Positions 20-38,258 of a stretch of DNA of 38,270 nucleotides are shown one piece after another. The stretch lies in sequence record OM735461.1, one strand, 5' to 3'. The translations under genes were made by a program, and so were the position numbers. The notes under the pieces are model-generated. The model made no database searches. It was given only the letters and a program-made list of their open reading frames with translations, and was not told the origin of the DNA. Each line of letters starts with the position of its first letter. Within the stretch, counting starts at the first letter, position 1. This DNA comes from Escherichia phage BUCT618.

Positions 20-2389
20 TTACCATGCTGAAAGGTTGTAGCCGGTGACCAGGTTGTCAGAGATGGCGTCTAGCGTAGGGTCAACCTGGTCGTCGTGCTT
101 TCCGTTAGGGAATACGGAGAATTCACCGATGTAGGCAGGCATCCACGGAGCATCCTTCGGCAGGTGAACAAGGCCCGCCTCAATCTGCGGCAGAACATCC
201 AGGGCGCGGGTGAATTTATCCACCGAGCGCTGAATCGGGATTACCGGCACACCCTCCATTTTCAGCGTCTGAATCAGGCCGGTTCCGCTGGCCTTATCCT
301 CAATCTTCATTCCGCGAACAACGCCACGGTTAATGGGTGATTTGTGCAAATCCCAGAATGCGCGAGCCTGTTTTATGAGGTCCGGCGCCTCCCATTTACC
401 ACGAATCTGGTCGAGCAGATAGGCGTGGCCGTTTTTGAATCCCCAGCACTGGAATACAGACCAGTCGTTGTGCTCTTTTGTTTTGAGAGCGGTATCTGCG
501 TATATAACGCGATAATCCCACTCCGGGTGCACAAAGCTGTTGTCGTACCACTGCCACCAGCTGTCTTTGAAAAGGCCGCCGCCTTTCGGTGCAGGGCGCT
601 GCATGTACTGACCAGCGAATACGTAAGGGTTACTGGCCTCCATCTCTGCCAGCTTCTCACGTGAGTGCTTAAAGGGCCACAAGGCGGTGTCATCTGGGTT
701 TACGGCAGGGATACTAAGTACATGCCACTGCTCGCCATTTCCGCCAGCCTGTAGCCATCCTGCAAGGTCTTCCTCGTGGAGTCTCTGCATGATAACGATA
801 ATTGGCGTATCAGGGCTGTTCAGGCGTGATTCCATCGTGGTCTGGAACCAGTCAATGACATTCTGCCGCATGGTGTCAGAATTGGCCTCGCTTGCCTTAT
901 GCGGGTCATCAATTATGATACAGTTAGATACAACGGCACCTGTTTGTGATAATATGAAGTTGTTGTTATCTTCAACCCCTAAACAATAGGTTTCATCAAC
1001 ATGACCGATATACTCAACGAAACATGGCTGACCATCCCCAACACCAATGGGCTTTACGAGGTTTCCGATGCTGGAAATGTCAGAAGGACACGTCCCATCC
1101 GAGCGCTTAAGCCTTCTGTTGACTCCAAAGGATACTTGAGAGTCAACCTTTCCGTTGGCGGTAAGGTCACCTGCAAATACATCGCTCACCTTGTCGCTGA
1201 GAATTTTATAGGCGAAAGGCCCCATAAGAATGAGGTTAGGCACCTGGACGGGAACCCCATGAATAACACCCTTAGCAATCTCGCGTATGGCACTAAGTCC
1301 GACAACATGCAGGACGCTTTGCGGCATGGAACATTCCCCGTGCTCGAAAGAAGACCAGGAGCAGTCCTCGACAGAGTAAAGGTTGTTGAAATATTCCAGA
1401 GCGCCGATGATGCTAAAACTCTCGCTGCCAGGTACGGAGTTAGCGTCGGGGTTATCAGGCAGATCAAACTCAGACAGACATGGCGTAGCGTCACGAATGG
1501 ATTGCCTGATGCTCGGTGGAATGCAAAGCCAAAGCACTCGAAGGAAGTGATAAAAATCGCCATCGACCGGCGCTACAGCAGGGAAGAGGCTTGCAGACTC
1601 ACCGGACTTTCTTTGCACCAGATTAAGAGGCTTCGCAAGATGAATGGCGGAGACCCATCCGGCATCGGTTAATATTTCATGATCAGGAGTGCACTCAAAT
1701 GAAGACCCATCATCAAAGTGCACTCTTATAATGTCATTGCCAGGGTTTACCCACTTGTGAGTGATCCGCTTAACTTCAGCAACCTGATTATTCTCATTGA
1801 ATGAGTTTACCTCCATGACACCGCTGTGGATTATGTCATAGATGGATAGCTCTCCGTCAGGAGTGGAAATAATCTGGCTAGCTGGGAAGCAACCGCCGAA
1901 GCCTTCACGCAGTTTACCTGCGCCATACCCTGTGATAGTCCCGTCCGAACCGGTGGCATAGACGCAGCCGCCGGTTTTGGTGCGCCACTCGTCTTTAGCC
2001 TTAGCGTCCGGCATCATGCCGATGTCGCCGAATACGGCACGGTACTCTTCAGACATGGCAATGGCGCGGGCCTGGTAGGTGTTATTTGCTGCAAGGCGCT
2101 TGGAGTAGCTGGCGTGGATAAATTCGCAGTCAGGATAGTTCCCGATAGCCCAGGCCATGAAGTTGACCACAGCAAGCTCGGTCTTTGAGTAGCGAGGGGG
2201 GATATTGATAATCAGGCGTTTGTACTGTCCGATAAAGCACCGCTCGAGCGCCTCGCAGATTTTCGCATGATGCCAGTTCTCCACAAAGTCAAAGCCCTTG
2301 CGGGCCTTGAACATGTATTTGGAAAACTCAAGCAGGTCACATCGCAGGGTAGCGATGTCGTCGGCGGAAAGTTTAATCTCTTGAGCCAT
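20..2389 (-). CDS. terL: Terminase large subunit precursor (166-aa N-extein + 323-aa intein + 300-aa C-extein; mature product would be 466 aa)
   Basis: Uninterrupted 789-codon ORF. Walker-A-like IPPRYSKTE and Walker B CIIIDDPHK. C-terminal nuclease-like region. SD GAAGGAAG upstream of the ATG. Start overlaps the TerS stop. Confidence 0.9.
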   Translation of the reverse strand: MAQEIKLSADDIATLRCDLLEFSKYMFKARKGFDFVENWHHAKICEALERCFIGQYKRLIINIPPRYSKTELAVVNFMAWAIGNYPDCEFIHASYSKRLAANNTYQARAIAMSEEYRAVFGDIGMMPDAKAKDEWRTKTGGCVYATGSDGTITGYGAGKLREGFGGCFPASQIISTPDGELSIYDIIHSGVMEVNSFNENNQVAEVKRITHKWVNPGNDIIRVHFDDGSSFECTPDHEILTDAGWVSAIHLAKPLNLVQRKSGESASLFPAVAPVDGDFYHFLRVLWLCIPPSIRQSIRDATPCLSEFDLPDNPDANSVPGSESFSIIGALEYFNNLYSVEDCSWSSFEHGECSMPQSVLHVVGLSAIREIAKGVIHGVPVQVPNLILMGPFAYKILSDKVSDVFAGDLTANGKVDSQVSFGVNRRLKRSDGTCPSDISSIGNLVKPIGVGDGQPCFVEYIGHVDETYCLGVEDNNNFILSQTGAVVSNCIIIDDPHKASEANSDTMRQNVIDWFQTTMESRLNSPDTPIIVIMQRLHEEDLAGWLQAGGNGEQWHVLSIPAVNPDDTALWPFKHSREKLAEMEASNPYVFAGQYMQRPAPKGGGLFKDSWWQWYDNSFVHPEWDYRVIYADTALKTKEHNDWSVFQCWGFKNGHAYLLDQIRGKWEAPDLIKQARAFWDLHKSPINRGVVRGMKIEDKASGTGLIQTLKMEGVPVIPIQRSVDKFTRALDVLPQIEAGLVHLPKDAPWMPAYIGEFSVFPNGKHDDQVDPTLDAISDNLVTGYNLSAW
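945..955 (+). promoter_or_regulatory. Candidate extended -10 promoter (tGTGATAATAT) for the antisense HNH gene
   Basis: TG-n-TAATAT lies 46 nt upstream of the HNH ATG. It shares the GTGATA core with candidate late promoters at 30331-30339 and 23344-23352. Confidence 0.3.
1001..1672 (+). CDS. HNH homing endonuclease (NUMOD4-like N-terminus, HNH_3-like core, two C-terminal HTH-like segments), encoded antisense inside the intein
   Basis: WLTIPNTNGLYEVSDAGNVRR; GYLRVNL..YIAHLVAENFIG..EVRHLDGNPMNNTLSNLAYGTKSDNMQD; ARYGVSVGVIRQIK and ACRLTGLSLHQIKRLRK. Confidence 0.85.
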   Translation: MTDILNETWLTIPNTNGLYEVSDAGNVRRTRPIRALKPSVDSKGYLRVNLSVGGKVTCKYIAHLVAENFIGERPHKNEVRHLDGNPMNNTLSNLAYGTKSDNMQDALRHGTFPVLERRPGAVLDRVKVVEIFQSADDAKTLAARYGVSVGVIRQIKLRQTWRSVTNGLPDARWNAKPKHSKEVIKIAIDRRYSREEACRLTGLSLHQIKRLRKMNGGDPSGIG

Positions 2390-2999
2390 ACTTCCTTCTG
2401 AGCGCCTCAGTTACATCTGAGCCTTGTGGTGACATTGAACCGTCGCTTGAGATGTGGTTGACGGTTTCTTTGTATCCGCCAAGCATCTTGATGAGCATAT
2501 CCTGCGCCTTCTGCTGGTCTGCCATCTCGAACTTCGGACCCATCTTCGTGAAGGTGATGCCTTTGATGAGTCCGCGAATCTCTTCGGGTACTTCATCAGA
2601 TGACATCTTCACGACCGGCACAGCCATCTCACCAATCACCTCGCCGTCCTCGTTCACCATTGGGCGTTTCTCCCATCCGATGAACTGAGTCACGTCGGCA
2701 AACGCCTGAGCCTGGATGCGTGATGCAATTTCGTCAAGGCTCATGAGTTTTGACTTGGCAATAAGCCTGCGAGCCTCGCGGATGTATGGGCCGACTTTTG
2801 GATGGGTCAGCAATTTGCATCCAGCGACTACGGCAGACTTATATGCTACATCTTCGCCATAAGCATGGAGATACGCTCTCGTTGCGTTACCATTAGCAAT
2901 ATAATGATTAGCAAATGTTAAATGGTCTTTACTCAGTTGAGCCGCCATTTCCTCAAGCTCAGGCGTGAAGAAAGGCAGCTTATCGTCTGCCTCTGCCAT
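2373..2999 (-). CDS. terS: Terminase small subunit
   Basis: N-terminal HTH-like FANHYIANGNATRAYLHAYG typical of Terminase_2-type small subunits. SD AAGGAGG. Sits directly upstream of and overlapping terL. Confidence 0.8.
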   Translation of the reverse strand: MAEADDKLPFFTPELEEMAAQLSKDHLTFANHYIANGNATRAYLHAYGEDVAYKSAVVAGCKLLTHPKVGPYIREARRLIAKSKLMSLDEIASRIQAQAFADVTQFIGWEKRPMVNEDGEVIGEMAVPVVKMSSDEVPEEIRGLIKGITFTKMGPKFEMADQQKAQDMLIKMLGGYKETVNHISSDGSMSPQGSDVTEALRRKYGSRD

Positions 3000-3000
3000 G

Positions 3001-3201
3001 TCAATCCTCCTTCACCAGCACCAGTTTAAACCGTGAACGAGCGACTTTCTCGCCATAGTTATGGATGGCGCGCGGGTTTGGTGTATTAAAACTTTTACTG
3101 CGGCCCGGAGTAATGAATACATCCTCGCCATTAGCCGCAGCATCCATTGCTTCCTTCATGCCGTTACGGATAAAGTCACGCGGGGTAAATTGTTTCATCA
3201 T
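3001..3201 (-). CDS. Hypothetical small protein, first gene of the packaging operon
   Basis: 66-aa ORF. SD AAAGGA. Its stop lies 1 nt from the TerS ATG. Confidence 0.55.
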   Translation of the reverse strand: MMKQFTPRDFIRNGMKEAMDAAANGEDVFITPGRSKSFNTPNPRAIHNYGEKVARSRFKLVLVKED

Positions 3202-3224
3202 TAATCCTTTCCGTTGTTTCCCCT

Positions 3225-3253
3225 ATTATCGCCCCGCAATGAAACAGTGTCAA
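3225..3253 (-). promoter_or_regulatory. Sigma70-like promoter of the packaging operon (GGTTGACAC-N17-GATAAT)
   Basis: TTGACA at 3253..3248 and GATAAT at 3230..3225. The -35 box contains the TGA stop of the upstream gene. Confidence 0.6.
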
Positions 3254-3750
3254 CCTCGGTATGATTTGATTTCACTGCGCACCCAGTTGCGGGGGATGGA
3301 GAATGTACCCATCTTCTTGCCTGATTCGGATGCCTCTTTGCACTCCAGTCTTCCATCCTCTTCTCGATACCTTGCATTGTTTACCACCTCTTTCAGCCAG
3401 AAGTCGCCATTGACTTTATGGGTGAAGGTTCGCAGTCCATCTTCGGTTGTGACATCTACGGCCATTTCTACATTGCGCAGGATGTTCACGACAGTTCTCC
3501 AGTCACGGAAGCCGTACTTCTTAACCAGGTCTATAGCGGGGATCAGGTCCGGGTCGATTTTGGTGGCTGCTTCTATGAAAGCCTGCTTATCAACCTCGGC
3601 TGACTCCTTGCGTCCTTTAACTTCACTCCGAAGTGTCCGTACTTCTGACTTAACGGATTTAAGTTCAGTGGTGAGTGATTTTACCTGCTCAATCAGCTTT
3701 TCAACATGAAGGGCCAGGTTTGCGTAGTGCGGGGTTGGTTTGCGTTTCAT
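3250..3750 (-). CDS. Hypothetical protein with N-terminal coiled coil
   Basis: ORF track 3250..3774. Start preferred at the internal ATG 3750 because of SD AAGGAG (MKRKPTPHY..). Heptad-like LIEQVKSLTTELKSVKSEVRTLRSEV. Confidence 0.6.
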   Translation of the reverse strand: MKRKPTPHYANLALHVEKLIEQVKSLTTELKSVKSEVRTLRSEVKGRKESAEVDKQAFIEAATKIDPDLIPAIDLVKKYGFRDWRTVVNILRNVEMAVDVTTEDGLRTFTHKVNGDFWLKEVVNNARYREEDGRLECKEASESGKKMGTFSIPRNWVRSEIKSYRG

Positions 3751-3780
3751 GGTTATCTCCTTAGTGTCATGCATGAGGAG

Positions 3781-3809
3781 AATTTAATATGTAGAAAGGA
3801 AGGTGTCAA
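3781..3809 (-). promoter_or_regulatory. Sigma70-like promoter (TTGACAC-N17-TAAATT)
   Basis: Reverse complement reads gTTGACAccttcctttctacatatTAAATT, just upstream of the 3750 start. Confidence 0.55.
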
Positions 3810-3971
3810 CATTATATTGATGATTCTCAATCACTGCTCTGCGTGGGGGTGTGGGTGAGAGTCATCGAGGCCTCGCCTCCACCCTGTCCCGTAAAGCAGG
3901 GTTTGAGGTTATCATATTTTTTTTATAAAGTCAATAGATGAGAGGCAAAAAACAAAGTATAAAATTAGTGT

Positions 3972-4000
3972 TTGACATAATCACACCAGGCGGGTAGATT
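3972..4000 (+). promoter_or_regulatory. Early promoter, family TTGACAT-N-GGTA(A/G)(A/G)TT
   Basis: TTGACA 3972-3977, 17-nt spacer, TAGATT 3995-4000. The 15 nt tagtgtttgacataa is identical to 32280-32294. Confidence 0.65.
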
Positions 4001-4025
4001 TACTGAAAACAACAGGAGAAACGAA

Positions 4026-4265
4026 ATGACCAACGAATCAATGAAAGAGTACGAAGAAATCCAGCAGCGCCTTATGGATGAGTTCATTAACAACATCTCA
4101 CCGTGGATTGACTGGGTTGGCATGTCTGGTTTTGAAGAAACAATGGCCCGCTCTGCAGTTCGCAGCCTTATCAGCCTTTCTTATTATGAAGGCACGATGA
4201 ATGGCATTCGTGTCATGCAGCAGAATATGAAGGAGTTCCATGATGATGCAATGCGTGACCGTTGA
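4026..4265 (+). CDS. Hypothetical early protein
   Basis: 79-aa ORF, SD AGGAG. Confidence 0.6.
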   Translation: MTNESMKEYEEIQQRLMDEFINNISPWIDWVGMSGFEETMARSAVRSLISLSYYEGTMNGIRVMQQNMKEFHDDAMRDR

Positions 4266-4277
4266 GGTGGCGAGGGT

Positions 4278-4460
4278 ATGAGACTTTATCAGTGCTACAG
4301 ATGCGGAGAATCGAAAGACTGGTATCGGTTCAACCCTGGCCAGAAGTATTGGGCAAGGCAGTGCATCAGATGTGAAATAACACCAGCCGGAATGATGCCG
4401 GTCCCGCAAGAAAGTGAGCACAGGTTCAGGTGCAAAAAGATTAAAAAGGTGTGCAAATGA
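4278..4460 (+). CDS. Small zinc-ribbon-like protein
   Basis: CYRCG ... CIRC cysteine pairs. SD GAGGG. Confidence 0.55.
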   Translation: MRLYQCYRCGESKDWYRFNPGQKYWARQCIRCEITPAGMMPVPQESEHRFRCKKIKKVCK

Positions 4461-4741
4461 AAAGCAGCAGAGAGCAGTTTGAGGAGTGGATTTACAAAAA
4501 TAGGATGCGAGGAGTGCCGTTTGATATTGAAGTTTTCGATGTCGACGGGGCAATTTTCTACAAATCGACAGAAACGCAAGGTCAATGGAATGCATGGCAG
4601 GCCAGCCGTGCGGCGATTGAGATTGAATTGCCAGACAAACTCATGGTTGAAGATGAGTTCGACAATGGGCATAACTGCGCAATCGACTACTGCGCTGATT
4701 CCATCCGTTCCGCTGGCATTACAGTAAAAGGTGATGCATGA
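4457..4741 (+). CDS. Hypothetical protein
   Basis: ATGA start/stop overlap with the previous ORF. The track ORF begins at an alternative GTG at 4451. Confidence 0.55.
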   Translation: MKSSREQFEEWIYKNRMRGVPFDIEVFDVDGAIFYKSTETQGQWNAWQASRAAIEIELPDKLMVEDEFDNGHNCAIDYCADSIRSAGITVKGDA

Positions 4742-4974
4742 ACATCTTCTCAATAATCAATATGGCGCAGGCCGCCAACCCGAAGGCAGAAGTCACCATC
4801 CGCAGCGGTGGTCATGATGCCATCATCATAACCTGGTATTGGGATGGCCAGTACCTGAACCGCAGCTATTGCAAGGCTCGAATGACCGGTCATCGCTTAG
4901 GCGAATATGAGGCGTGGAGAATTGCGTTCAATGCGGTTGCTCAGATTATGGGAGTCGTGGGGTGTGCGAAATGA
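4738..4974 (+). CDS. Hypothetical protein
   Basis: 78-aa ORF, ATGA-coupled on both sides. Confidence 0.5.
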   Translation: MNIFSIINMAQAANPKAEVTIRSGGHDAIIITWYWDGQYLNRSYCKARMTGHRLGEYEAWRIAFNAVAQIMGVVGCAK

Positions 4975-5654
4975 TTATCTGGTCACTATTTGACGGTTCA
5001 GGTCTTATGGTCAAGCCGTGGGCGGAAGCAGGACATACTTGCTATTGTTTCAACTACGACGGAGCTGACCACGGTGACTACGCACGATTGGGCGCAAAAG
5101 TTGAACATGAAAATATCCACTATATAAACGCGTGGATTGATAATAAATTCGACTTCGACGTTGCGCCGGATATTATTTTCGCGTTCCCTCCGTGCACAGA
5201 CTTAGCCGTTAGCGGCGCGTCTCATTTCGAAACGAAGCGTAAGAAGAATGCAACGTTTCAGGTAGAGGCCGTGATTACATGTAAAGTGGCGGCTCGTCTG
5301 GCTAAAAGGTACAACGTACCTTATATGATTGAGAACCCGGTTAGCGTTCTTTCGTCTTTATGGCGCAAGCCTGACTACTCGTTCAATCCGTACGAATACG
5401 GCGGCTATTTACCCGAAGACGACACGCATCCAATGTTCCCTGAATACATAAAACCACGTGACGCATACCCTAAGAAGACATGTATTTGGGCCGGTAACGG
5501 TTTTGTCATGCCTGTTAAATCATGCGTTGCCGTCGGTGACGGGTACTCAAACCAACACAATAAATTAGGCGGTAAATCAGTGAGGACAAAAACAATCCGC
5601 AGCCTGACCCCGCGCGGATTTGCCCGTGCGGTATTTGAGGCTAACAAAGGTTGA
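4971..5654 (+). CDS. Compact DNA cytosine-C5 methyltransferase-like protein
   Basis: Motif I-like SLFDGSG, motif IV-like FPPCTDLAVSG, motif VI-like MIENPVS. ATGA-coupled start at 4971 (track start 4914 is upstream and in frame). Confidence 0.6.
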   Translation: MIIWSLFDGSGLMVKPWAEAGHTCYCFNYDGADHGDYARLGAKVEHENIHYINAWIDNKFDFDVAPDIIFAFPPCTDLAVSGASHFETKRKKNATFQVEAVITCKVAARLAKRYNVPYMIENPVSVLSSLWRKPDYSFNPYEYGGYLPEDDTHPMFPEYIKPRDAYPKKTCIWAGNGFVMPVKSCVAVGDGYSNQHNKLGGKSVRTKTIRSLTPRGFARAVFEANKG

Positions 5655-5709
5655 CCCATCTATAACAGGGCGGGATGATAGCCGCCCCATTTACCTGGAA
5701 TAAATCATC

Positions 5710-7314
5710 ATGGCAGAAGAACAAATAAACAGCCTCGTCAACCTGGCGGCTGAACAGTCACTTATCGGCGGCGTACTGATACTCGGGTTCGATGCAGATT
5801 TTCGTGAGCGCACTGATTACGTTTTCCAGAACGTGCGGGAATCTGATTTCTATGCCGCATCACACCGCATTATCTGGCGTGAAATCTGTGCGATGACCGA
5901 CAAGGCAAAGTCGGTGGATGTGATTACCCTGTTCGACATTATCGAAAGCAAGGGTATGGGTGAAAAGATAGGCGGGTTCGCGTACCTGTCAGAAATAGCC
6001 AAAGGAACGCCCAGCGCCGCAAACATCAATGCCTATGCTGATATTGTGGTTGAGCGTGCAAATGCGCGTGAAGTTCTGCGCCGGATGAATGCCGCCCGTG
6101 AAATCATTACCAAAGAGGACGGTCGTTCGCTGGCTATCCGACTGGCAGAAGCAAGTGACATCACCGCAGGCATCGACAACATATCAGCGGGCCGTATGCT
6201 GTTCAATCCTGTCGATGTGATCGCCTCGCAGCTGGAGACCATTGATGAAGACTATTCCCTTATCGAGAAGATTTTCAATGAATGTATTAAGCACAAAGAT
6301 ATTACTCTGCTTACTGGCGCTGGCGGTACGGGTAAATCCTGGCTCACCATCAAACTTGGCATTTCTGTCGCGCTCGGGCGTCCCGCACTTGGCGGGAAAT
6401 ACAATTTCCTCACTCCCGTGGAGCAGGGGGTGGTGGTCTTCCTGATTGGCGAGGATAGTGTCGATGATTACCGGCATCGCCTGGACAAGCTAATTAAGGC
6501 GGCTGGCATGACCCGTGATGAAAAGGCGCGGATTCTTTCGTCAATCCTGTTCGTTCCACTACGTGATAAGGATATTCGTCTGATTAAGCGCGAGCGTGGT
6601 GGCGACCTGGAGCAGACCGGCGTTATCCGCAATCTTGCAGCATCACTGAAGGCATGTAACTGCCGTCTTGCCATTCTTGACCCGATGAACAAATTCGCCA
6701 GCGGTGAGGAGAACAGTAACAACGAGGCAAACGTATTTATAAACGCTGTGCGGCGCGTGGTTGATTTATCTGGCTCGGCAGTGCTTATGGTCCACCACTC
6801 ATCAAAAACCGACCCTGGAGGCTCGCGCGGGGCTTCTGCGCTGGTGGATGGTGCGCGTTGTCATCTTGCACTGGCAACAATGTCGCAGCTTAAAGGCGAG
6901 AAGGCAGAGGCTGGTGATGATGACATCATTCGCCTGACCATGCCGAAGCATAACAACTTCAAAGGGTGGGACGGACCGGTATGGCTCAAGCGAAGTGACG
7001 CTGGCGATATGCTGACGATTGACCCGCCAGAGATGATTGGTACAGGCGCTATAGCCAAGCGCTTCCATGTGGATACGACGCGCGTTAAATCGCTCATCAT
7101 TGAATGTATCCGCAGCAACTCCAGACCGACAAGCACCAGCGAGTTTATCAACGCGTTTATAGAAGGACCGGGTAAAGAGCTGTGCCCTAACTACGGCAAG
7201 GCAAAGGATATTATCGGCGAGATGCTTAACGACGGCATCCTGGAAGAAGGCACGATGTTCAATCGCAAAGTGTTGCTGGTCGCTGAGCGCGAGAATGATA
7301 ATTTTACCTGGTGA
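5710..7314 (+). CDS. Replicative helicase-like protein (DnaB N-terminal domain + RecA/AAA_25-type ATPase)
   Basis: N-terminal NLAAEQSLIGGVLI (DnaB-N signature). Walker A LTGAGGTGKSWL. Walker B-like LAILDP. Confidence 0.75.
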   Translation: MAEEQINSLVNLAAEQSLIGGVLILGFDADFRERTDYVFQNVRESDFYAASHRIIWREICAMTDKAKSVDVITLFDIIESKGMGEKIGGFAYLSEIAKGTPSAANINAYADIVVERANAREVLRRMNAAREIITKEDGRSLAIRLAEASDITAGIDNISAGRMLFNPVDVIASQLETIDEDYSLIEKIFNECIKHKDITLLTGAGGTGKSWLTIKLGISVALGRPALGGKYNFLTPVEQGVVVFLIGEDSVDDYRHRLDKLIKAAGMTRDEKARILSSILFVPLRDKDIRLIKRERGGDLEQTGVIRNLAASLKACNCRLAILDPMNKFASGEENSNNEANVFINAVRRVVDLSGSAVLMVHHSSKTDPGGSRGASALVDGARCHLALATMSQLKGEKAEAGDDDIIRLTMPKHNNFKGWDGPVWLKRSDAGDMLTIDPPEMIGTGAIAKRFHVDTTRVKSLIIECIRSNSRPTSTSEFINAFIEGPGKELCPNYGKAKDIIGEMLNDGILEEGTMFNRKVLLVAERENDNFTW

Positions 7315-30386: not shown

Positions 30387-30463
30387 TGGCGCACACGGAC
30401 GGATTTGAACCTTCAATCAGCCGATTATAAGTCGGTTGCTTTAACCAATTAAGCTACGCATGC
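30387..30463 (-). tRNA. tRNA with anticodon UAU (Ile, AUA codon), CCA encoded
   Basis: Manual cloverleaf. Acceptor GCAUGCG/CGUGUGC (two G-U pairs). D arm GCUU/AAGC with GG in the loop. Anticodon loop C-U-UAU-A-A. T loop UUCAAAU. One A-C mismatch and one A-G mismatch in the stems. Confidence 0.8.
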
Positions 30464-31230: not shown

Positions 31231-31263
31231 TTATCAGCCTCCTGAAACCTTTCTGCCTTCCGG

Positions 31264-31488
31264 TTATCCAGCGGTCGAATCATCTTTCTTCTCCCTCACG
31301 GCAATCAGCTTGTTAACGGAGTTGCCAGCAACGACGACGGCGAGGTAAATGCCGAACATATCTGTCGTCAGCGTGTTCTGATATGCCTGCCAGACGATGA
31401 CGCCTGACGCAATCATGACGCCGATGAACTGGCATGTTTTTGACAGAGAAAAGTCGCCGACTGGCGAGGTTAGCAGGTCTTTAAGCAT
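31264..31488 (-). CDS. Holin (two predicted TM helices, charged C-terminus)
   Basis: 74 aa with CQFIGVMIASGVIVWQAY and MFGIYLAVVVAGNSV. Sits between the endolysin and the spanins. Confidence 0.6.
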   Translation of the reverse strand: MLKDLLTSPVGDFSLSKTCQFIGVMIASGVIVWQAYQNTLTTDMFGIYLAVVVAGNSVNKLIAVREKKDDSTAG

Positions 31489-31552
31489 CGGTTCCCCAGA
31501 ATAGCGCGACCAGGATTAGCACTACTGTAGCACCAATACAGACCTCGACCAA
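31481..31552 (-). CDS. Possible 23-aa single-TM peptide between endolysin and holin (TTG start)
   Basis: (M)VEVCIGATVVLILVALFWGTDA. Its TAA overlaps the holin ATG region. No clear SD. Confidence 0.2.
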   Translation of the reverse strand: MVEVCIGATVVLILVALFWGTDA

Positions 31553-31556
31553 ATAA

Positions 31557-32105: not shown

Positions 32106-32209
32106 AAAAACCTCATTATTAAGTTTTGGCTCGATTTCGCTCTAGCGGGTTCGTCGTGGCATACTTGCCTGTCGGCGATGCCCCGCTTCCTATCCAGGAA
32201 AGCGAAGCC

Positions 32210-32238
32210 AATTTAACATATAAAAAAGCAAAAGTCAA
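32210..32238 (-). promoter_or_regulatory. Sigma70-like promoter of the lysis cassette (TTGACT-N17-TAAATT)
   Basis: Reverse complement reads TTGACTtttgcttttttatatgtTAAATT. It precedes a leader of about 100 nt containing hairpins. Confidence 0.5.
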
Positions 32239-32285
32239 AAGAAGGAGCACAAAATGACGCTGGTGGAAATAGATTGTTATAGTGT

Positions 32286-32314
32286 TTGACATAAGGCATA
32301 GATGCGGTAAGATT
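32286..32314 (+). promoter_or_regulatory. Early promoter, same family as 3972-4000
   Basis: TTGACA 32286-32291 and GGTAAGATT 32306-32314. Confidence 0.65.
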
Positions 32315-32343
32315 TAGCCATCACCAACAAGTGGAGCAATAAC

Positions 32344-32649
32344 ATGAAAGAGTTTAAAGGTACGCCTGGGCCGTGGGTTGCAGATAAGACATCTCGCGCG
32401 ATAGGCCCAATTAGCCATGATGATGACCAGTCTTACGGAATTTTAATTCCTGTTGCCTGGGTGGAGTTTGACCAAGATGAGGGGATTAAGGCGTCAAACC
32501 AACGCCTCATCGCTGCAGCGCCTGAGTTGCTGGAGGCCTTGAAGAAAATGGTCAGCAAAGCGTATAAGCAAAACTGGAATGATGCATACCCAGAAGAGAT
32601 TCAATCAGCACAGGCAGCAATCAACAAAGCACTGGGAGAAAAACAATGA
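32344..32649 (+). CDS. Hypothetical protein
   Basis: 101 aa, SD GTGGAG. ..NQRLIAAAPELLEALK.. motif is common in small phage early proteins. Confidence 0.6.
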   Translation: MKEFKGTPGPWVADKTSRAIGPISHDDDQSYGILIPVAWVEFDQDEGIKASNQRLIAAAPELLEALKKMVSKAYKQNWNDAYPEEIQSAQAAINKALGEKQ

Positions 32650-33527
32650 AACTTATCGACTTGCTGGTTAAAGAGTTACCGCAGTGGGGCGGGTGGCCTG
32701 AAGGTGCGATAAATGCTACACAAGATAAAGATGGGGTGGTGAATTTCTATGAAGGTGCAACACCTGTATTTGCCTCGGTCGCCTGGCTTGGTGGTGACTG
32801 GTGCGGAAATGAGTTTAACACAATTACGGCCAGCGACTACGACACCGCCATTGTCACCCGAGAACAATACGAATCCGCGCTCGCAGCCAGTAAAGCCGTT
32901 GTTGGCCATGACGGATGGATTCAATGGGCTGGCGGTGAGTGCCCGGTTGATAGTGACGCAATTGTTGAAGTCAAATACCGAAATCCGAGCCGGAACAAAT
33001 TCAATAATGATCGTGCTGGCGATTTTACCTGGTCACATGATGGATTTGGCGGTGACATCATCGCCTACCGCCTGCAACAGCCGACGAAATCAGAACAGGC
33101 TTGCGATGACGCTGCGGAAGCTGATGACGAAGCAGACCTGAACGAGTGCATTGGTCAGGATATTGATATTCCGGAATGGAATGGTGAAGGGTTGCCGCCA
33201 GTTGGCACTATCTGCCAGGCCAAAGTCCCGCGCTCAATTACTGGGTGGGAATGGCGAAGGGTGAAGGTTGTCGAGTCTGGCATCCCAGGCGCAGAGAAAG
33301 AGGTGCTTGTTTATGACCTGGAGACAACAATCCCATCATGGGCAGATGAATTCCGACCACTCCGCACCGAAGCGGAAAAGGCGCGTGAGAAATTGGCCGC
33401 GTCGCTTCATATTGCGGCTGGCGCCAGTCCAATCGAATTAAACGGCATAGGGACTTTATACTTCAAGCTGGCTGATGCCATCATTTCAGGAAGCGTTTTC
33501 GGAACTACATTCAAGGCGGGTAAATAA
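32646..33527 (+). CDS. Hypothetical protein
   Basis: 293 aa, ATGA-coupled. Confidence 0.6.
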   Translation: MKLIDLLVKELPQWGGWPEGAINATQDKDGVVNFYEGATPVFASVAWLGGDWCGNEFNTITASDYDTAIVTREQYESALAASKAVVGHDGWIQWAGGECPVDSDAIVEVKYRNPSRNKFNNDRAGDFTWSHDGFGGDIIAYRLQQPTKSEQACDDAAEADDEADLNECIGQDIDIPEWNGEGLPPVGTICQAKVPRSITGWEWRRVKVVESGIPGAEKEVLVYDLETTIPSWADEFRPLRTEAEKAREKLAASLHIAAGASPIELNGIGTLYFKLADAIISGSVFGTTFKAGK

Positions 33528-33751
33528 TGGATATTGACGTAGTTAACCATCCATCGCACTACACTAAGGGCAGAATCGAGTGCATTGATGCCATTGATTC
33601 AGCCACCACCGGAAAATCAGGAATCGAAGCCGTATGCGTGGCAAATATCATTCGTTACCTGTGGCGCTACGAAGAAAAAGGTGGCCTTGAAAGTGTAAGG
33701 AAGGCGCAGTGGTATCTTAACAAATTAATCTCTGAACTGGAGTCAAAATAA
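33527..33751 (+). CDS. DUF3310-like protein
   Basis: NHPSHYT..IECIDAI...[21 protein letters not shown]. Confidence 0.65.
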
Positions 33752-34275
33752 TGGCATCGAGAGGCGTTAACCGTGTAACAATCCTGGGCAACCTCGGCAA
33801 TGACCCGGATGTAAAATACACCGCATCAGGAAGCGCAATCGCAAACCTGACGGTGGCAACATCTGAGTCATGGAATGACAAGGCAACCGGTGAGAAGAAG
33901 GATTTGACCGAATGGCATCGCGTCGTGCTGTTCGGCAAACTGGCAGAGGTGGCAGGTGAATACCTCCGAAAAGGTTCGCAAGTCTATATTGAAGGCCAGC
34001 TTCGAACCCGCAAATGGACCGACCAATCCGGCCAGGAGAAATACACCACAGAGATTGTTGTCGGCATGAATGGGGTGATGCAGATGATTGGCGGAAAGCA
34101 GGATAGCAAGCCTCAGCAACAAAGCGGATGTGGGCAGCCTCAACAACCAAAGCCGCAGCAGCAGAGCAAGCCAGCACCAGCCGGGCATAATGTTCCTCCA
34201 GTGGACTTTTCTGACGACATTCCGTTCGCTACCATTGGTTTGCAGTACGGGAAATCGAGAATCTACGCCCTATAA
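33751..34275 (+). CDS. ssb: Single-stranded DNA-binding protein
   Basis: [58 protein letters not shown].. with a Gln/Pro-rich linker and an acidic DDIPF tail motif. Confidence 0.9.
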
Positions 34276-34294
34276 TTATCACCATATCAACCAA

Positions 34295-34313
34295 CCCGCT
34301 ACGGCGGGTTTTT
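34295..34313 (+). terminator. Rho-independent terminator after ssb
   Basis: CCCGC-tacg-GCGGG followed by TTTTT. Confidence 0.75.
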
Positions 34314-34331
34314 CATCTTTTACGCAATCTG

Positions 34332-34360
34332 TTACAATTTCAAGATTGTTCCAGTATATT
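34332..34360 (+). promoter_or_regulatory. Candidate promoter (TTACAA-N17-TATATT)
   Basis: Located between the ssb terminator and the 34409 gene. Confidence 0.4.
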
Positions 34361-34408
34361 CACTCAAAGGCAGGCGTGTACCCTAAGGAAAGAAGAAAGG
34401 GGGTGCAT

Positions 34409-34726
34409 ATGCCAAACAGGATGAACATGTCTACAGTCGAAGAGCGGCTAACGAAAGTTGAGACGAATCTTGCGAACCTTGCAGATGCACAAAGGGATGT
34501 TAGCCAGGCTTTAAACAAGGTGTCTGAGTCCATCCACGCCATCCAGATTAGCATTGAGCGCCAGAACGCGAGTATTCATCAGATAGTTGAGTTGCGTCGT
34601 GATGTTGATGCAATGTCGAAGGATGTGGATAAGCTAAAAGGCAAGGTGTGGTGGTTAGGCGGCGTGGCAGCCGCCTGTACTTTCATTATCGTGAACTTCT
34701 CGCGCATGAAAGACTTCTTTCACTGA
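34409..34726 (+). CDS. Coiled-coil protein with C-terminal TM anchor (XhlA-like architecture)
   Basis: Start chosen at the ATG with SD AAGGGGG (track ORF extends upstream in frame). Coiled coil LTKVETNLANLADAQRDV.. followed by WWLGGVAAACTFIIVNF. Confidence 0.55.
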   Translation: MPNRMNMSTVEERLTKVETNLANLADAQRDVSQALNKVSESIHAIQISIERQNASIHQIVELRRDVDAMSKDVDKLKGKVWWLGGVAAACTFIIVNFSRMKDFFH

Positions 34727-34853
34727 TGCGGATTATATCCATGTCGCGCATGGTTGCATGACGTGCGCGGGCGAAGTAGTATCGCGCGAATGTGAATCCA
34801 TAGCGGCGCAATCCGCCAGCAAATCCCCACCGTTCAATCAGCCACCATTTCAT
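34686..34853 (-). CDS. Possible 55-aa basic/aromatic protein
   Basis: MKWWLIERWGFAGGLRRYGFTFARYYFARARH... In frame with track ORF 34686..34973. Its 3' end overlaps the convergent 34409-34726 gene by 41 nt. Confidence 0.3.
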   Translation of the reverse strand: MKWWLIERWGFAGGLRRYGFTFARYYFARARHATMRDMDIIRISERSLSCARSSR

Positions 34854-34981
34854 TTCATCCTCCCCAGATAGAAGCATACTCCCGCCGCACTGAGATATAT
34901 TGCCGCTGAAATATCGCGGTTGATAGCTGCCGAGAATATTGCCGACAGCACCAGGAAAAGCATTGGCATCCACTTGATCAT
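34850..34981 (-). CDS. Possible 43-aa hydrophobic membrane peptide
   Basis: MIKWMPMLFLVLSAIFSAAINRDISAAIYLSAAGVCFYLGRMK. SD GAGGGG 9 nt upstream. ATGA-coupled to the next small ORF. Confidence 0.35.
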   Translation of the reverse strand: MIKWMPMLFLVLSAIFSAAINRDISAAIYLSAAGVCFYLGRMK

Positions 34982-35026
34982 TTTTTTACCCCTCATCATA
35001 TTTCGCCTCAAATCCACAGATTGTGG

Positions 35027-35054
35027 TTGACATTACCATGATACATGGTAACCT
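35027..35054 (+). promoter_or_regulatory. Early promoter with an embedded palindromic operator candidate
   Basis: TTGACA 35027-35032 and GGTAACCTT 35047-35055. The spacer is the palindrome TTACCATG-ata-CATGGTAA (35033-35051). Confidence 0.55.
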
Positions 35055-35079
35055 TATCCATATCAACACGGGAGGTAGT

Positions 35080-35196
35080 ATGAATCAGCAGAAATTTGAA
35101 TCAGCACAACGGGCGGCAAGACTGGCAGTTAAGTGTAGAAGCAAAGGCGCATGGAAAGAGGCGATGCGCCTGCTTCGGGAGGCTATTTATGCTTGA
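35080..35196 (+). CDS. Hypothetical 38-aa protein
   Basis: MNQQKFESAQRAARLAVKCRSKGAWKEAMRLLREAIYA. SD GGGAGG. Confidence 0.4.
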   Translation: MNQQKFESAQRAARLAVKCRSKGAWKEAMRLLREAIYA

Positions 35197-35335
35197 CCGT
35201 CATTGCCCAATCGACCGCGACGAACGCATCCACGCCGACAGCTGGCAGGATGAGCCAACAGAGGAAGATATTGAGCGCCAGCGCTCAATCATCGAAGCAC
35301 AGGCAGACTTAGAGGAGATGTACAATGGCTGGTGA
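35189..35335 (+). CDS. Hypothetical 48-aa acidic protein
   Basis: MLDRHCPIDRDERIHADSWQDEPTEEDIERQRSIIEAQADLEEMYNGW. Its ATG overlaps the previous stop (ATGCTTGA). Confidence 0.4.
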   Translation: MLDRHCPIDRDERIHADSWQDEPTEEDIERQRSIIEAQADLEEMYNGW

Positions 35336-35501
35336 ATTTGCAGTTTACACATCGGTAGCTGTCGGCGGGAAGAGTGGCCGACAAACCAAGCAAGAAACAC
35401 GCGAGCAGGTCATCGCTCGCAATAGTTTCCCTGGTCCAGACCAGAATCGTTACATTGATAAGTTTTTAGCGGAGCAGAAGAAAAATGAGCAACTGGCATA
35501 A
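35325..35501 (+). CDS. Hypothetical 58-aa protein
   Basis: MAGEFAVYTSVAVGGKSGRQTKQETREQVIARNSF... Overlaps the previous ORF by 11 nt. Confidence 0.4.
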   Translation: MAGEFAVYTSVAVGGKSGRQTKQETREQVIARNSFPGPDQNRYIDKFLAEQKKNEQLA

Positions 35502-35568
35502 CGAACACATCATGCAGTGGCATCGCCGTCGCATTAAGTCAATCATTAACCCTTGTGAGGTTTAACAA

Positions 35569-35955
35569 ATGGCAAAAACTACATATAGTCGAGAAGAACT
35601 TGAGCGCCAACTAGCAGAATCACGCCGCGAGTTCTGGGCAGCAGACGCTACCATTAGCAATCTTGAAATGAAGCTCGCAGACATGGCGGCACAGCTCGCT
35701 AACGCAGAGAACAAGTGCGCAGCGCCGGTATCTGTGCCTGCTGAGCGTGCAGCATTTGAAACCTTCATGGAGAAACGCTTTAAAGACCTTATCGACCGTC
35801 GCCTGGTGAAGAATGGTGATGGTGAATACTTCGCGTGGGACATGCAGGTTGCATGGATTGTCTGGCAAGAGCGCGCCGCTATGCTTAAGTGCTCCGAACC
35901 TGTAACGGACAACACGAATCAGCAATTCGAATCTCTAAGCAGAGGCGACAAATGA
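35569..35955 (+). CDS. Hypothetical protein (coiled-coil N-terminus; Ead/Ea22-like feel)
   Basis: 128 aa, SD GTGAGG. Confidence 0.6.
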   Translation: MAKTTYSREELERQLAESRREFWAADATISNLEMKLADMAAQLANAENKCAAPVSVPAERAAFETFMEKRFKDLIDRRLVKNGDGEYFAWDMQVAWIVWQERAAMLKCSEPVTDNTNQQFESLSRGDK

Positions 35956-36356
35956 ACGGAAAAATAGCACTTCGCGACATCATAAAAGCAATTGTTATTC
36001 TTAAACCTGGCGTTACGATGGCGGTAATTCAGCGGATGATATGGACAAAAACACCAAGCGCAACAATTGGGACGGCGCTGCACTGCATGTCAGCACAAGG
36101 GTTATTTACGACAAGGAGGGTTGAAAACAAAGGAAGGCGAGGATTCAAATGCAATGCCTACTATCCAACGAAGAAGCTACTGGACTCGTTCACGGTTACG
36201 AGCGAGATGCGGGAGTATCTTGGGCTGACGGATGGCGACCTTAACCCAGGGAAGGTGAAGCGCAAGTGCAACACTGTCTTTGAGTCATGTAAACAAAGCC
36301 CGGCAACGAAACGCATCCTTTGGTTTTATGGGCGCGGTGAATTGCCAGCCATCTGA
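35952..36356 (+). CDS. Hypothetical protein
   Basis: ATGA-coupled start at 35952 (track ORF extends upstream in frame). 134 aa. Confidence 0.55.
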   Translation: MNGKIALRDIIKAIVILKPGVTMAVIQRMIWTKTPSATIGTALHCMSAQGLFTTRRVENKGRRGFKCNAYYPTKKLLDSFTVTSEMREYLGLTDGDLNPGKVKRKCNTVFESCKQSPATKRILWFYGRGELPAI

Positions 36357-36395
36357 TTGGTTAAGCGAGGTTATGACGATTATGGAGAAGTTTCG

Positions 36396-38258
36396 ATGAT
36401 TACAAATGATGGTGTTAAGTTAATTCATGGTGATTGCCTGGAGGTGCTGAAGGGAATGCCAGACAATTCCGTGGATAGCATAGTCACAGACCCGCCTTAT
36501 GGACTTTCATTCATGGGGAAGAAATGGGACTACGAAGTTCCTGACCAGGCTATCTGGGAGGAATGCCTACGCGTCCTTAAGCCTGGTGGTCATCTGCTGG
36601 CCTTTGCTGGTACACGAACGCAGCACCGCATGGCTGTTCGCATTGAGGACGCTGGGTTCGAGATACGGGACATGATTGCATGGGTATATGGCAGCGGGTT
36701 TCCTAAAAGTGCGAACGTTTCAAAGCAGATAGACCAGCAAGAAAGAAACAGATGGGTTAAAATCATCAAGGCGATTGATAAAACAAACCTTTCTGAAATG
36801 GCTGAACTATGGATAAACTCAAGAAATGCGAATGCTGCGGGGCTTTCATTCCAAAGGAATCAAACCGAAGCTGGGCTCAATACGCAAAAAAACGGTTTTG
36901 CTCACGGAAGTGTTCTGCTTCAAGTCAGTCACAAAAACTGCGATGCGCTTGCAGTCATTGCGGAACTAAATTCGACCGAAGCCCATCCCACAAGCGAGGG
37001 GAATTGCAGTTCTGCACAATCGAATGCCGAAAGCACTATCACGGCATCGAAAAGCCATGCGACCACTGCGGAAAAATCACCAGAAAACCGCGAAGCAACG
37101 CTGTGCATGGTGGATTTTTCTGCTCTACACAGTGCATGGGGCTGGCAAGGCGAAAGCAGGGCGGACAAACTCAAGGCCGTCGAAGCCCTGAAGATTTGGC
37201 TTGGAAGAAAGCCATCCTCAAGGCGGGAGGCTACAAGTGCGCTATGTGCGGCACTGACAGACGACTTGAAGCGCATCACGTTAAGCCAATCAAAGACTTT
37301 CCTGAGCTACGACACGACACGTCAAATGGCTTGTGCGTCTGCCATCAGTGCCACTATTACGGAATCCACGGCGGCAAGCCTAATTTCATTCACGGCAGGT
37401 ACTCTAAAAAGTAAGGCCATCGACAAGGCGGCTGGTGCGGAGCGCGAGGTGGTCGGCAGCTACGAGGTGACTCGCGACATGTCTGGCGGATCATGGGCGG
37501 AACTTCACGGAAAACCGAACAGCGCCAAGATGCACAACATAACCGCACCAGCCACCGACGCCGCAAAACAGTGGCAAGGCTGGGGTACAGCCCTAAAGCC
37601 AGCACTTGAACCAATCACCGTAGCACGCAAGCCGTTCAAAGGCACTGTGGCGGCTAACGTGATGGAGTGGGGAACGGGGGCGCTGAATATTGATGGGTGC
37701 AGGGTGGTGGGGGATGTTTGGACTAGAAGAACACCTTATAAAGACAACATCAAAGGCGGACAGCTTCACGCCGCAAAAAGTGAATCAACCTACGCATGCG
37801 GCCCTCAATCTTGCAATGAATTGGGGCGCTGGCCCGCGAACCTGATTCACGACGGAAGCCATGAGGTGATGTCGGAGTTTCCTGCAAATGTTGTCGCGAA
37901 CGGAGGTAGCGGCGTATTTAACCAGCACGCATGGATGCGCTACGAGACGCCGCAGAACATCAATCGCAGCAAAGGCAGCGCAGCTCGCTTCTTCTACTGC
38001 GCTAAGGCCAGCAAGAAAGACCGAGGCGAAGGTAATAACCACCCTACCGTCAAGCCAACCGACCTCATGGCGTACCTTTGCCGCCTTGTAACGCCTCCTG
38101 GTGGCGTGGTTCTCGACCCGTTCATGGGCAGCGGTAGCACCGGCAAGGCAGCCGTGCGCGAAGGCTTCCGCTTCATCGGCATTGAAATGGACGCGGAGTA
38201 CCTTGCAATCGCTGAGGCGAGAATTGCGCATGATGCAGGGAAGCAGACTGAGAAATAA
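36396..38258 (+). CDS. Beta-class N6-adenine/N4-cytosine DNA methyltransferase carrying a 215-codon read-through insertion
   Basis: Motif IV SIVTDPPYGL near the N-terminus. Motif I VLDPFMGSGSTGKAA near the C-terminus. ATG 36396 with SD GGAGAAG (track ORF starts at an upstream TTG). The frame is open across 36768-37427. Confidence 0.8.
   Translation: MITNDGVKLIHGDCLEVLKGMPDNSVDSIVTDPPYGLSFMGKKWDYEVPDQAIWEECLRVLKPGGHLLAFAGTRTQHRMAVRIEDAGFEIRDMIAWVYGSGFPKSANVSKQIDQQERNRWVKIIKAIDKTNLSEMAELWINSRNANAAGLSFQRNQTEAGLNTQKNGFAHGSVLLQVSHKNCDALAVIAELNSTEAHPTSEGNCSSAQSNAESTITASKSHATTAEKSPENREATLCMVDFSALHSAWGWQGESRADKLKAVEALKIWLGRKPSSRREATSALCAALTDDLKRITLSQSKTFLSYDTTRQMACASAISATITESTAASLISFTAGTLKSKAIDKAAGAEREVVGSYEVTRDMSGGSWAELHGKPNSAKMHNITAPATDAAKQWQGWGTALKPALEPITVARKPFKGTVAANVMEWGTGALNIDGCRVVGDVWTRRTPYKDNIKGGQLHAAKSESTYACGPQSCNELGRWPANLIHDGSHEVMSEFPANVVANGGSGVFNQHAWMRYETPQNINRSKGSAARFFYCAKASKKDRGEGNNHPTVKPTDLMAYLCRLVTPPGGVVLDPFMGSGSTGKAAVREGFRFIGIEMDAEYLAIAEARIAHDAGKQTEK
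36768..37427 (+). mobile_element. In-frame HEG-bearing insertion in the methyltransferase gene, bounded by duplicated KAIDK codons
   Basis: aag gcg att gat aaa (36768-36782) versus aag gcc atc gac aag (37413-37427). Same peptide, four synonymous differences, spaced exactly 645 nt apart. Confidence 0.6.
36809..37414 (+). CDS. HNH endonuclease with three N-terminal zinc-ribbon repeats, nested in the +1 frame of the methyltransferase ORF
   Basis: Three repeats: CECCG..FCSRKC / CSHCG..FCTIEC / CDHCG..FCSTQC. HNH core YKCAMCGTDRRLEAHHVKPIKDFPELRHDTSNGLCVCHQCH. Confidence 0.8.
   Translation: MDKLKKCECCGAFIPKESNRSWAQYAKKRFCSRKCSASSQSQKLRCACSHCGTKFDRSPSHKRGELQFCTIECRKHYHGIEKPCDHCGKITRKPRSNAVHGGFFCSTQCMGLARRKQGGQTQGRRSPEDLAWKKAILKAGGYKCAMCGTDRRLEAHHVKPIKDFPELRHDTSNGLCVCHQCHYYGIHGGKPNFIHGRYSKK

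Follow-up and report, generated by a model that had tools for sequence, protein, structure and literature searches.

The closest described systems are inteins with an antisense or out-of-frame endonuclease gene and the ShiLan domain of mycobacteriophages. An antisense endonuclease in an intein was first reported by Gorbalenya in 1998 (Synechocystis DnaX intein), according to the account given by Gosselin, Arsenault & Gogarten (bioRxiv 10.1101/2025.01.02.630785). The same preprint describes actinobacteriophage inteins with antisense LAGLIDADG, antisense VSR-like and out-of-frame EndoVII-like endonucleases, some of them in terL, and HNH endonucleases are listed there solely as the in-frame type. 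The cyanobacterial dnaX intein was revisited in a 2026 preprint. The ShiLan domain is an insert in a mycobacteriophage methylase that is stop-free in the methylase frame and hides, in the third frame, an HNH gene with zinc fingers (Arsenault, Gosselin & Gogarten 2025, PMC11855218). The last four bases (TAAC) contain a stop codon, the first 11 residues resemble those that follow downstream, and neither an intein nor an intron signature was found. Its authors left the translation of the HNH gene open and proposed leaderless initiation. Here, we analysed the genome of Escherichia phage BUCT618 (38,270 bp; this whole stretch is called the window, and all positions follow its numbering). It holds an antisense HNH gene (HNH1) inside an intein of terL, the gene of the terminase large subunit, and an out-of-frame HNH gene (HNH2) inside a read-through insert of a DNA methyltransferase (methylase) gene.

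Both features are very probably composite selfish elements: an HNH homing gene is read in another register, and its codon choice appears to be selected to keep the host frame stop-free. The initial annotation of this DNA had proposed such insertions as a third route for the persistence of homing genes in coding sequence. The pattern was supported, but the idea had been published before (Arsenault et al. 2025, PMC11855218; Gosselin et al. 2025, bioRxiv 10.1101/2025.01.02.630785). Relatives (numbered with L) were collected by IMG/VR, metagenome and database searches. As the HNH proteins were used as queries to find the loci, the sample is unbiased with regard to the state of the host frame. For the null models of stop counts, synonymous codons were redrawn with the codon usage of the flanking genes. 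A synonymous shuffle within the gene understates the significance, since the constraint has already left its mark on the codons of that gene; the flanking-gene usage was preferred. The host frames were open beyond expectation, namely at all 18 HNH2 loci and in all nine HNH1 lineages, with P values per sequence from 0.02 to <1e-5. Decaying host frames, which would have spoken for isolated accidents, were not seen anywhere in this survey.

The terL gene is located on the minus strand (20..2389) and encodes a precursor of 789 amino acids (aa) including the intein (GenBank UOK17883.1, an exact match to BUCT618 TerL; Terminase_6C and TIGR01630 matches). TerL with the intein has 113 members in its 90% cluster in the protein collection. 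Alignment with the intein-less homologues L001-L005 placed an intein of 323 aa (Cys167...Asn489) at 923..1891 on the minus strand. The TerL proteins of L001-L004 (466 aa, 95-98% aa identity to BUCT618) align end to end except for the 323-aa block; that of L005 (~460 aa, 85% identity) is likewise intein-less. The coordinates given for this insert in the initial annotation, with an HNH gene antisense to terL, were exact, and HNH1 is on the plus strand. The insertion is in frame (aa 167-489) and precisely within the Walker B motif, GFGG|(A->C)IIIDDP. The +1 residue, Cys490 (920-922), stands where empty alleles have Ala. Compared with intein-less L001/L002, four clustered nucleotide changes were found at the intein/extein junction (GGC|GCA to GGT|TGT), and the empty site in L001 reads ...GGCTTCGGCGGCGCAATCATAATTGATGA....

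The splicing blocks lie at the two ends of the intein. The N-terminal splicing region (aa 167-241; 1667..1891, minus strand) contains Cys1 and block B, CTPDHEIL, which has the TxxH signature (CTPDH). It matches TIGR01445 intein_Nterm with 30.0 bits (cut-off 24.5) and is conserved in L095, L096, L122, L123 and L097. The C-terminal splicing region (aa 466-490; 920..994, minus strand) reads ...GHVDETYCL...VVSN|C, matches TIGR01443 intein_Cterm with 23.9 bits (cut-off 15.6) and is conserved across lineages. Both are curated NCBIfam intein models, and both scores exceed the curated cut-offs. Between the two regions lies a read-through linker (about aa 242-465; 995..1666, minus strand), which is the antisense translation of HNH1 and gave no Pfam or NCBIfam match. 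Judged by Cys1, the TxxH block B, the C-terminal Asn489 and the +1 Cys490, the intein is of the class-1 type. TerL probably undergoes protein splicing, since the host gene is essential and the splicing residues are kept across nine lineages.

HNH1 (1001..1672, plus strand) encodes 223 aa and is unannotated. NUMOD4 (4e-10) and HNH_3 (2e-9) matches were found together with a C-terminal helix-turn-helix (HTH). Residues 9-129 align with I-HmuI (PDB 1U3E; E=2e-10), the HNH homing/nicking endonuclease of a group I intron in Bacillus phage SPO1. By these domains and this similarity, HNH1 classes as an I-HmuI-like HNH homing endonuclease; I-HmuI is intron-encoded, whereas HNH1 lies antisense inside an intein. 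HNH1 is the codon-aligned antisense of intein aa 240-463 and reaches from block F to block B. Taken as reverse complements, its start ATG corresponds to the His codon of intein block GHVDET, and its TAA stop to a Leu TTA codon in block B. HNH1 thus overlaps the gap between the splicing blocks and would fill the place of the canonical intein endonuclease domain.

In the codon-aligned antisense register, stops arise solely from the sense codons TTA, CTA and TCA. As each of these can be replaced by a synonym, an open intein need not cost the endonuclease a single amino acid. None of the 20 Leu and 13 Ser codons of HNH1 is TTA, CTA or TCA. If codons are used as in the terL exteins, 4.5 stops are expected in the antisense intein frame, and none was observed (P(0)=0.008). 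The other two antisense registers across HNH1 carry 3 and 18 stops.

A search of IMG/VR and metagenomes with the HNH1 protein yielded nine lineages, from 96% down to 31% HNH identity (named: window, L117, L095/L118-121, L096, L122, L123, L097/L124, L125). All nine have the HNH gene in antisense orientation within a terL intein at Walker B that shows Cys1...Asn|Cys, and no stop interrupts the intein frame anywhere along the gene; the sequence of L125 was available without the intein N-terminus. TTA, CTA and TCA codons were absent from all nine HNH genes (HNH G+C 29-55%; P(0) from 2e-2 to 3e-6). The count was still zero in the three AT-rich lineages (HNH G+C 29-32%), in which TTA and CTA make up 43-56% of the host Leu codons. 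The antisense frames of more distant, free-standing HNH1 homologues (L126-L129) were closed. Among the three closest lineages, HNH1 substitutions at codon positions 1/2/3 were 0.31/0.19/0.54. Identity between lineages across the overlap was 66-69% in the HNH1 frame and 38-44% for the antisense translation in the intein frame. The concentration of substitutions at the wobble position and the higher identity of HNH1 suggest that the endonuclease is the constrained reading and that the intein frame is merely held open.

The terL element shares with the described antisense-endonuclease inteins a contiguous intein with conserved splicing blocks, an intact opposite-strand ORF (open reading frame) between the blocks, an open intein frame, purifying selection on the endonuclease frame, a frequent location in terL and a disjunct distribution, which points to invasion that is still going on. 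It differs from them in that the endonuclease is I-HmuI-like (NUMOD4/HNH_3) and in that the hosts include an E. coli phage and uncultured metagenomic phages (HNH G+C 29-55%), not actinobacteriophages. The present analysis adds figures for the codon-aligned register and for the full avoidance of TTA, CTA and TCA.

Other described arrangements can also be compared with terL. The cyanophage psbA intron is, besides T4 mobE with I-TevIII, a further case of collaborative (trans) homing. In the T4 system (PMC2790892), as would be the case in terL, the insertion does no harm thanks to a splicing element, and mobility comes from an endonuclease that is translated separately; the partners in BUCT618, however, are nested and overlap base for base. 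Fractured genes with split inteins (Dassa et al. 2009, PMC2677866) also carry a free-standing-type endonuclease gene in the position of the intein endonuclease domain. There, the host gene is split and rejoined by trans-splicing, whereas the frame in BUCT618 is continuous.

Two side observations concern the terL inteins. The 14-18 nucleotides (nt) 3' of the intein site (ATCATAATTGATGA; window 920-940, L095, L096 and the L001-L004 junctions) were near-identical at synonymous positions, although the TerLs are only 41-66% identical. This stretch could be an endonuclease recognition site or reflect co-conversion tracts. In L123 (1120-4446, minus strand), whose TerL is AT-rich, another intein-like insert (DDV|CLAGNTLIS...ILVSN|CDT) lies close to the C-terminus, in addition to the Walker-B intein with its antisense HNH.

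The methylase gene (N6/N4 DNA methyltransferase; 36357..38258, plus strand) is a 633-aa ORF whose N6_N4_Mtase match is split into N- and C-terminal parts. GenBank entry UOK17941.1, 100% identical to this ORF, starts at 36396 and has 620 aa. The methylase motifs are intact, with DPPY near the N-terminus and FMGSGSTG near the C-terminus. Insert-free homologues read ...GFPKSLDVSKAIDKAAGAEREV... and join ...GFPKSxDVSK to AIDKAAGAEREV..., whereas BUCT618 reads ...GFPKSANVSK, then QIDQQERNRWVKIIKAIDK...TLKSK, then AIDKAAGAEREV.... At the nucleotide level, the insert-free site is ...GTTTCAAAGGCCATCGACAAGGCG..., and the 3' end of the insert is ...AAAAAGTAAG|GCC. This alignment defined a ShiLan-like insert of 690 nt (230 codons; 36726..37415, plus strand) that is read through in the methylase frame and ends in TAAG.

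The target motif occurs three times on the plus strand. The first copy, VSKQID (36717..36734), marks the 5' junction in the alignment. The second, IKAIDK (36765..36782), was paired by hhalign with the native VSKAIDK and overlaps the position of a -35 box. The third, SKAIDK (37410..37427), marks the 3' junction, where the native sequence resumes and where the HNH2 stop lies inside the S-K codons (AGTAAG). The insert start QIDQQE and IKAIDK resemble the downstream AIDKAA. The boundary of the insert is ambiguous by one repeat unit because of this threefold motif. Such an offset explains why the initial annotation had placed the insertion at 36768-37427; that it is an HNH insertion with an open host frame was borne out.

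HNH2 (36809..37414, plus strand; 201 aa, unannotated) has HNH and HNH_2 matches. It consists of three CxxC...C zinc-ribbon repeats followed by the HNH core. It is offset by 452 nt from the methylase frame and thus lies in frame +2 (the third frame) rather than +1, a minor correction. The two endonucleases had been assigned to different HNH subfamilies and to independent events. This agrees with the NUMOD4/HNH_3 type of HNH1, the zinc-ribbon HNH type of HNH2 and their mutual BLASTP E value of 3.6. The stop codon of HNH2 is within the last 4 nt of the insert.

Across HNH2, the methylase frame has no stop, and the other four alternative frames have 6-12. For the window, the probability of zero stops was 0.0145 with the codon usage of the flanks; the within-gene synonymous shuffle gave P=0.017. 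All 18 HNH2 homologues (58-94% aa identity) were embedded in a methylase ORF that is open through the HNH gene or to the contig end. These loci comprise 14 distinct IMG/VR loci, three found via protein look-ups and one Bacteroidales metagenome-assembled genome. With codons redrawn from each locus's own methylase flanks, the probability of zero stops ranged from 0.0145 (the window) to <2.5e-4. Pairwise differences of HNH2 at codon positions 1/2/3 were 0.25/0.22/0.43. Identity was 60-94% for HNH2 versus 30-88% for the methylase-frame peptide, and nt identity between loci went down to 61%.

The read-through peptide had no Pfam or NCBIfam family match and no intein motif. In an AlphaFold2 (AF2) model built with 42 homologues, the methylase core was confident, and residues 150-260 had a pLDDT score (predicted local distance difference test) below 50. 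The peptide most likely stays in a working enzyme, as there would otherwise be no selection for an open frame. In another branch of the family (L027, L059, L076; P0080, P0089, P0096, P0114), a native HTH-like insert of ~65 aa (TAWMRTTGLTARQINE.TGTNMGGHY...) was found at the exact SKAIDK|AEREV position. The idea that the peptide of the HNH insert is a diverged copy of this native insert was rejected (hhalign probability 24%, with only the SKAIDK repeat aligned). In L058 (3001-5139; IMG/VR 3300047564_003366), a canonical-looking intein is located 12 aa upstream of the HNH site (...MIAWVYG|CLSEDTEIL...VFVTGN|SGFPKSLDVSKAIDK). The native insert and the nearby intein indicate that the insertion site is a conserved motif beside a permissive loop. 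Several IMG/VR contigs (L033, L064, L071, L080, L093) carry two adjacent methylase genes or partial copies of the same family.

The methylase insert resembles the ShiLan domain in many respects. The methylase belongs to the same N6_N4 family (that of BUCT618 matches Taj, Wee, OwlsT2W and others), the zinc-ribbon HNH is in the third frame, the stop lies in the last 4 nt (TAAC in ShiLan, TAAG in BUCT618), the 5' end mimics downstream sequence, the methylase frame is open, and neither intein nor intron signatures were found. The site and the HNH protein differ. The insert is at VSK|AIDKAAGAEREV in BUCT618 and at TALKP|AFEPIVVARKP in OwlsT2W, ~45 aa apart. The HNH proteins are only marginally similar (pairwise E=3e-4 over a zinc-ribbon repeat), tblastn of HNH2 against 50,697 phage genomes showed no direct link to the ShiLan HNH, and the domain order is three N-terminal ribbons and then HNH in BUCT618 compared with ribbon-HNH-ribbon in ShiLan. 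Moreover, the start is an ATG after a sigma-70 consensus promoter in the relatives of BUCT618, but a proposed leaderless GTG in Mycobacterium. On these comparisons, the BUCT618 insert classes as an analogous or distantly related element and not as the ShiLan domain itself. Among the mycobacteriophages, Taj gp79 (L115) is a methylase with a lone LAGLIDADG insert after FMAKTWD. OwlsT2W (L116) carries the ShiLan insert; the annotation breaks its methylase up into gp66, gp67 and gp68.

Both elements show signs of mobility. The terL exteins are 93.6% nt identical to those of intein-less L001/L002, and TerLs with no more than 41-66% identity share the same intein with its HNH gene. So disjunct an occurrence agrees with homing, or with precise loss, rather than with purely vertical descent. 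Close relatives differ in whether the element is present, and on this ground HNH1 probably nicks or cleaves the empty allele site-specifically. The methylase insert of the window is 94% nt identical to that of L015, with 72% for the N-flank and 52-66% for the C-flank. Compared with L102, the values are 78% for the insert and 44-60% for the flanks. The closest relative for the residues just 3' of the site is insert-free L020 (86% aa).

The 90 nt 5' of the HNH2 ATG were aligned across 14 loci. A fixed arrangement, TTGACA-16-TATAAT-6-ATG, was found; nine of the 14 loci match it at 11-12 of 12 positions (five at 12/12 and four at 11/12). A promoter scan independently reported a 12/12 site in L018. 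The corresponding position in the window is 36775..36802 (plus strand). In relatives, the -35 box sits within the codons of the internal target motif (KALDN, GCA CTT GAC AAT). The target copies in the element are degenerate, and it is the middle copy that supplies TTGACA in this way. With 6 nt between the end of the -10 box and the ATG, the expected transcription start is the A of the ATG or a neighbouring base, which would give a leaderless mRNA. Lambda cI transcribed from PRM is a precedent for a leaderless mRNA in E. coli. HNH2 may thus be made from a leaderless mRNA off a sigma-70 promoter built into the methylase frame, independent of methylase translation, and this feature together with the avoidance of TTA, CTA and TCA would define rules of 'stop-free overprinting'; we regard this as a tentative proposal, with a chance of being correct that is a little short of even.

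For HNH1, a candidate promoter (TAGATA-17-GATAAT with an upstream TG; 925..953, plus strand) lies ~47 nt 5' of the ATG, in a stretch that is also constrained because block G of the intein is encoded opposite to it. Taken directly from the sequences, L096 has TTGACA-17-GATAAC there, and L095 has TAGAGA-17-GATAAT. Canonical ribosome-binding sites of the form GGAGG-N7-ATG or GTG precede HNH1 in the three AT-rich lineages.

The proposed course of events is as follows. A free-standing-type HNH homing gene would lodge in a coding gene and be read from a different register. In terL, TerL would be translated through a meaningless linker of ~220 aa, and protein splicing would remove intein and linker together. 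HNH1 would be made from its own transcript and ribosome-binding site and would cut or nick intein-less terL in co-infecting phages, whose repair would copy in both intein and gene. In the methylase, a ShiLan-type element of 690 nt would occupy a permissive surface loop, and the 230-codon peptide without splicing motifs would be retained in a still-functional enzyme. In most relatives, HNH2 would be transcribed as a leaderless mRNA from a near-perfect sigma-70 promoter inside the methylase ORF.

We weighed other explanations for the open frames and for the HNH genes. The methylase could be dead and its frame open for another reason, such as ribosome traffic that counters Rho-dependent termination or mRNA decay, or a need for the C-terminal part only. 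The methylase does seem dispensable, as no long methylase ORF was found in the close relatives L001/L003 within 3 kb downstream of terL (the expected place if the genome is circular), and AF2 confidence is mostly low across the insert. However, the catalytic DPPY, the AdoMet (S-adenosylmethionine) motif FxGxG and the whole C-terminal half are conserved in all invaded genes. Of the 120 best clusters of methylase homologues in the protein collection, at least 48 show insert motifs, and 45 of these reach at least 569 aa. The HNH gene has its own promoter in relatives, and other members of the family accommodate a native insert of 65 aa at the site. Hence, we consider a dead methylase unlikely.

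The methylase insert could also be lost ahead of translation or in its course, for example through an unrecognised self-splicing intron or translational bypassing, so that the peptide is never made. The 5' end of the insert mimics downstream exon codons, a feature that the ShiLan authors found reminiscent of group I introns (PMC11855218), and Rfam covers only described families. For both inserts, Rfam at E<=10 gave neither a group I/II intron nor a credible RNA family. RNA splicing, against which the initial annotation had set its proposal, thus left no signal, and a group I/II intron was rejected for lack of a ribozyme core in Rfam and because the host frames are open far beyond chance. An intron would leave no reason for an open host frame, so removal at the RNA level is disfavoured: it would lift selection on the methylase frame, yet this frame is stop-free at all 18 loci. 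Moreover, the insert length is a multiple of 3. Removal of the insert is more improbable still than a dead methylase.

Domesticated phage functions were considered as well, the HNH genes then being packaging-associated or anti-defence nucleases and not homing endonucleases. Zinc-ribbon HNH enzymes beside cos and terminase genes are common in phages (PMC3592412), and HNH2 is ~850 nt from the genome end, adjoining terL on a circular map. In L145 (1024-5106), the invaded methylase lies between a small-terminase-like gene (weak Sf6_terminase match) and a downstream gene of at least 507 aa; a packaging module can thus include the methylase together with its HNH. Against this, neither the intein nor HNH1 is present in close relatives whose terL is 93.6% identical, and L001/L003 lack a long methylase ORF in the 3 kb 3' of terL, so neither HNH gene looks required. 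HNH1 is similar to I-HmuI, from a bona fide family of intron homing enzymes. HNH2 always travels with the methylase insert whatever the gene neighbours, and the insert is far more alike between genomes than its flanks. Domestication was given even less credence than removal of the insert. Coincidence, that is, two recent insertions that happened to leave the host frames open, could be entertained for the window alone (P=0.017 in the within-gene shuffle of the methylase, small but not overwhelming), but it has next to no chance given 18/18 loci and 9/9 lineages open despite 30-70% protein divergence, per-sequence P values down to 3e-6, 3-26 stops in other alternative frames and loci that are not near-clonal (nt identity down to 61%), and it is refuted by the comparative data.

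Several observations weigh against the reading of both features as composite homing elements. Protein splicing, endonuclease activity, homing and methylase activity with the insert are all inferred from sequence. The Pfam model Intein_splicing (PF14890) scored below its threshold (25.8 vs 35.8), and the penultimate intein residue is Ser, not His, before the terminal Asn; a penultimate His is not obligatory in inteins. HNH2 is without a characterised homologue, and tblastn against 50,697 phage genomes gave no match. In BUCT618 and its nearest relatives L015 and L016, the boxes of the HNH2 promoter match at only 7-9 of 12 positions (TTGATA-16-AATGGC, 7/12, in the window), with a TG one base upstream of the -10 box. 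This degenerate promoter could mean early decay of the endonuclease or a switch of expression mode. No Shine-Dalgarno sequence precedes HNH2 in BUCT618, and HNH1 has only a weak, distant Shine-Dalgarno-like AGG there. The promoter-like site of HNH1 overlaps conserved intein codons, so its conservation is not creditable to promoter function. Either HNH gene might thus be poorly expressed in BUCT618. Finally, AF2 predicted, with fair confidence, a helical bundle at methylase residues 270-350 (pLDDT 72-89), and the read-through peptide may not be entirely inert.

In GenBank, each host gene is one long ORF (789-aa TerL, 620-aa methylase), and neither HNH gene is annotated. The exact HNH1 and HNH2 sequences were absent among ~15 billion predicted proteins. 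The expectation that annotation pipelines miss such genes was thus correct, and gene callers systematically hide this class of element, an alternate-register HNH gene within a coding gene. Megablast searches with the two host genes found no match among 50,697 phage genomes or among 5,426 E. coli genomes. A protein search with the intein by itself likewise had no hits although the full TerL is in the collection, which was put down to the word filter of the search and not to rarity. At the Rfam gathering threshold, the single match in the window was a tRNA gene (30390-30463, minus strand). Terminal repeats were sought at the window ends, and none was found.

Both architectures were already described (1998, 2025), and the BUCT618 cases are new members of a published idea. 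New are an antisense HNH-type case in an intein, a second methylase site, non-actinobacterial hosts and the presence of both architectures in one culturable coliphage; this novelty is modest. The probable promoter with its leaderless mRNA and the explicit codon-avoidance rules would be the most useful additions. Dozens of uncultured phages show the ShiLan-like design again, at a second site in the same methylase family. The consensus internal promoter with a leaderless mRNA is a possible answer to the question of the ShiLan paper on how the hidden HNH is expressed. If true, the rules of stop-free overprinting would be usable to find such elements systematically. The results confirm outside actinobacteriophages, and with explicit statistics, that homing genes persist by overlapping coding genes while selection keeps the host frame stop-free. 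As BUCT618 infects E. coli, the published open questions are directly testable, and the phage would, if this reading is true, be the first E. coli-tractable model for splicing, expression and homing of both architectures.

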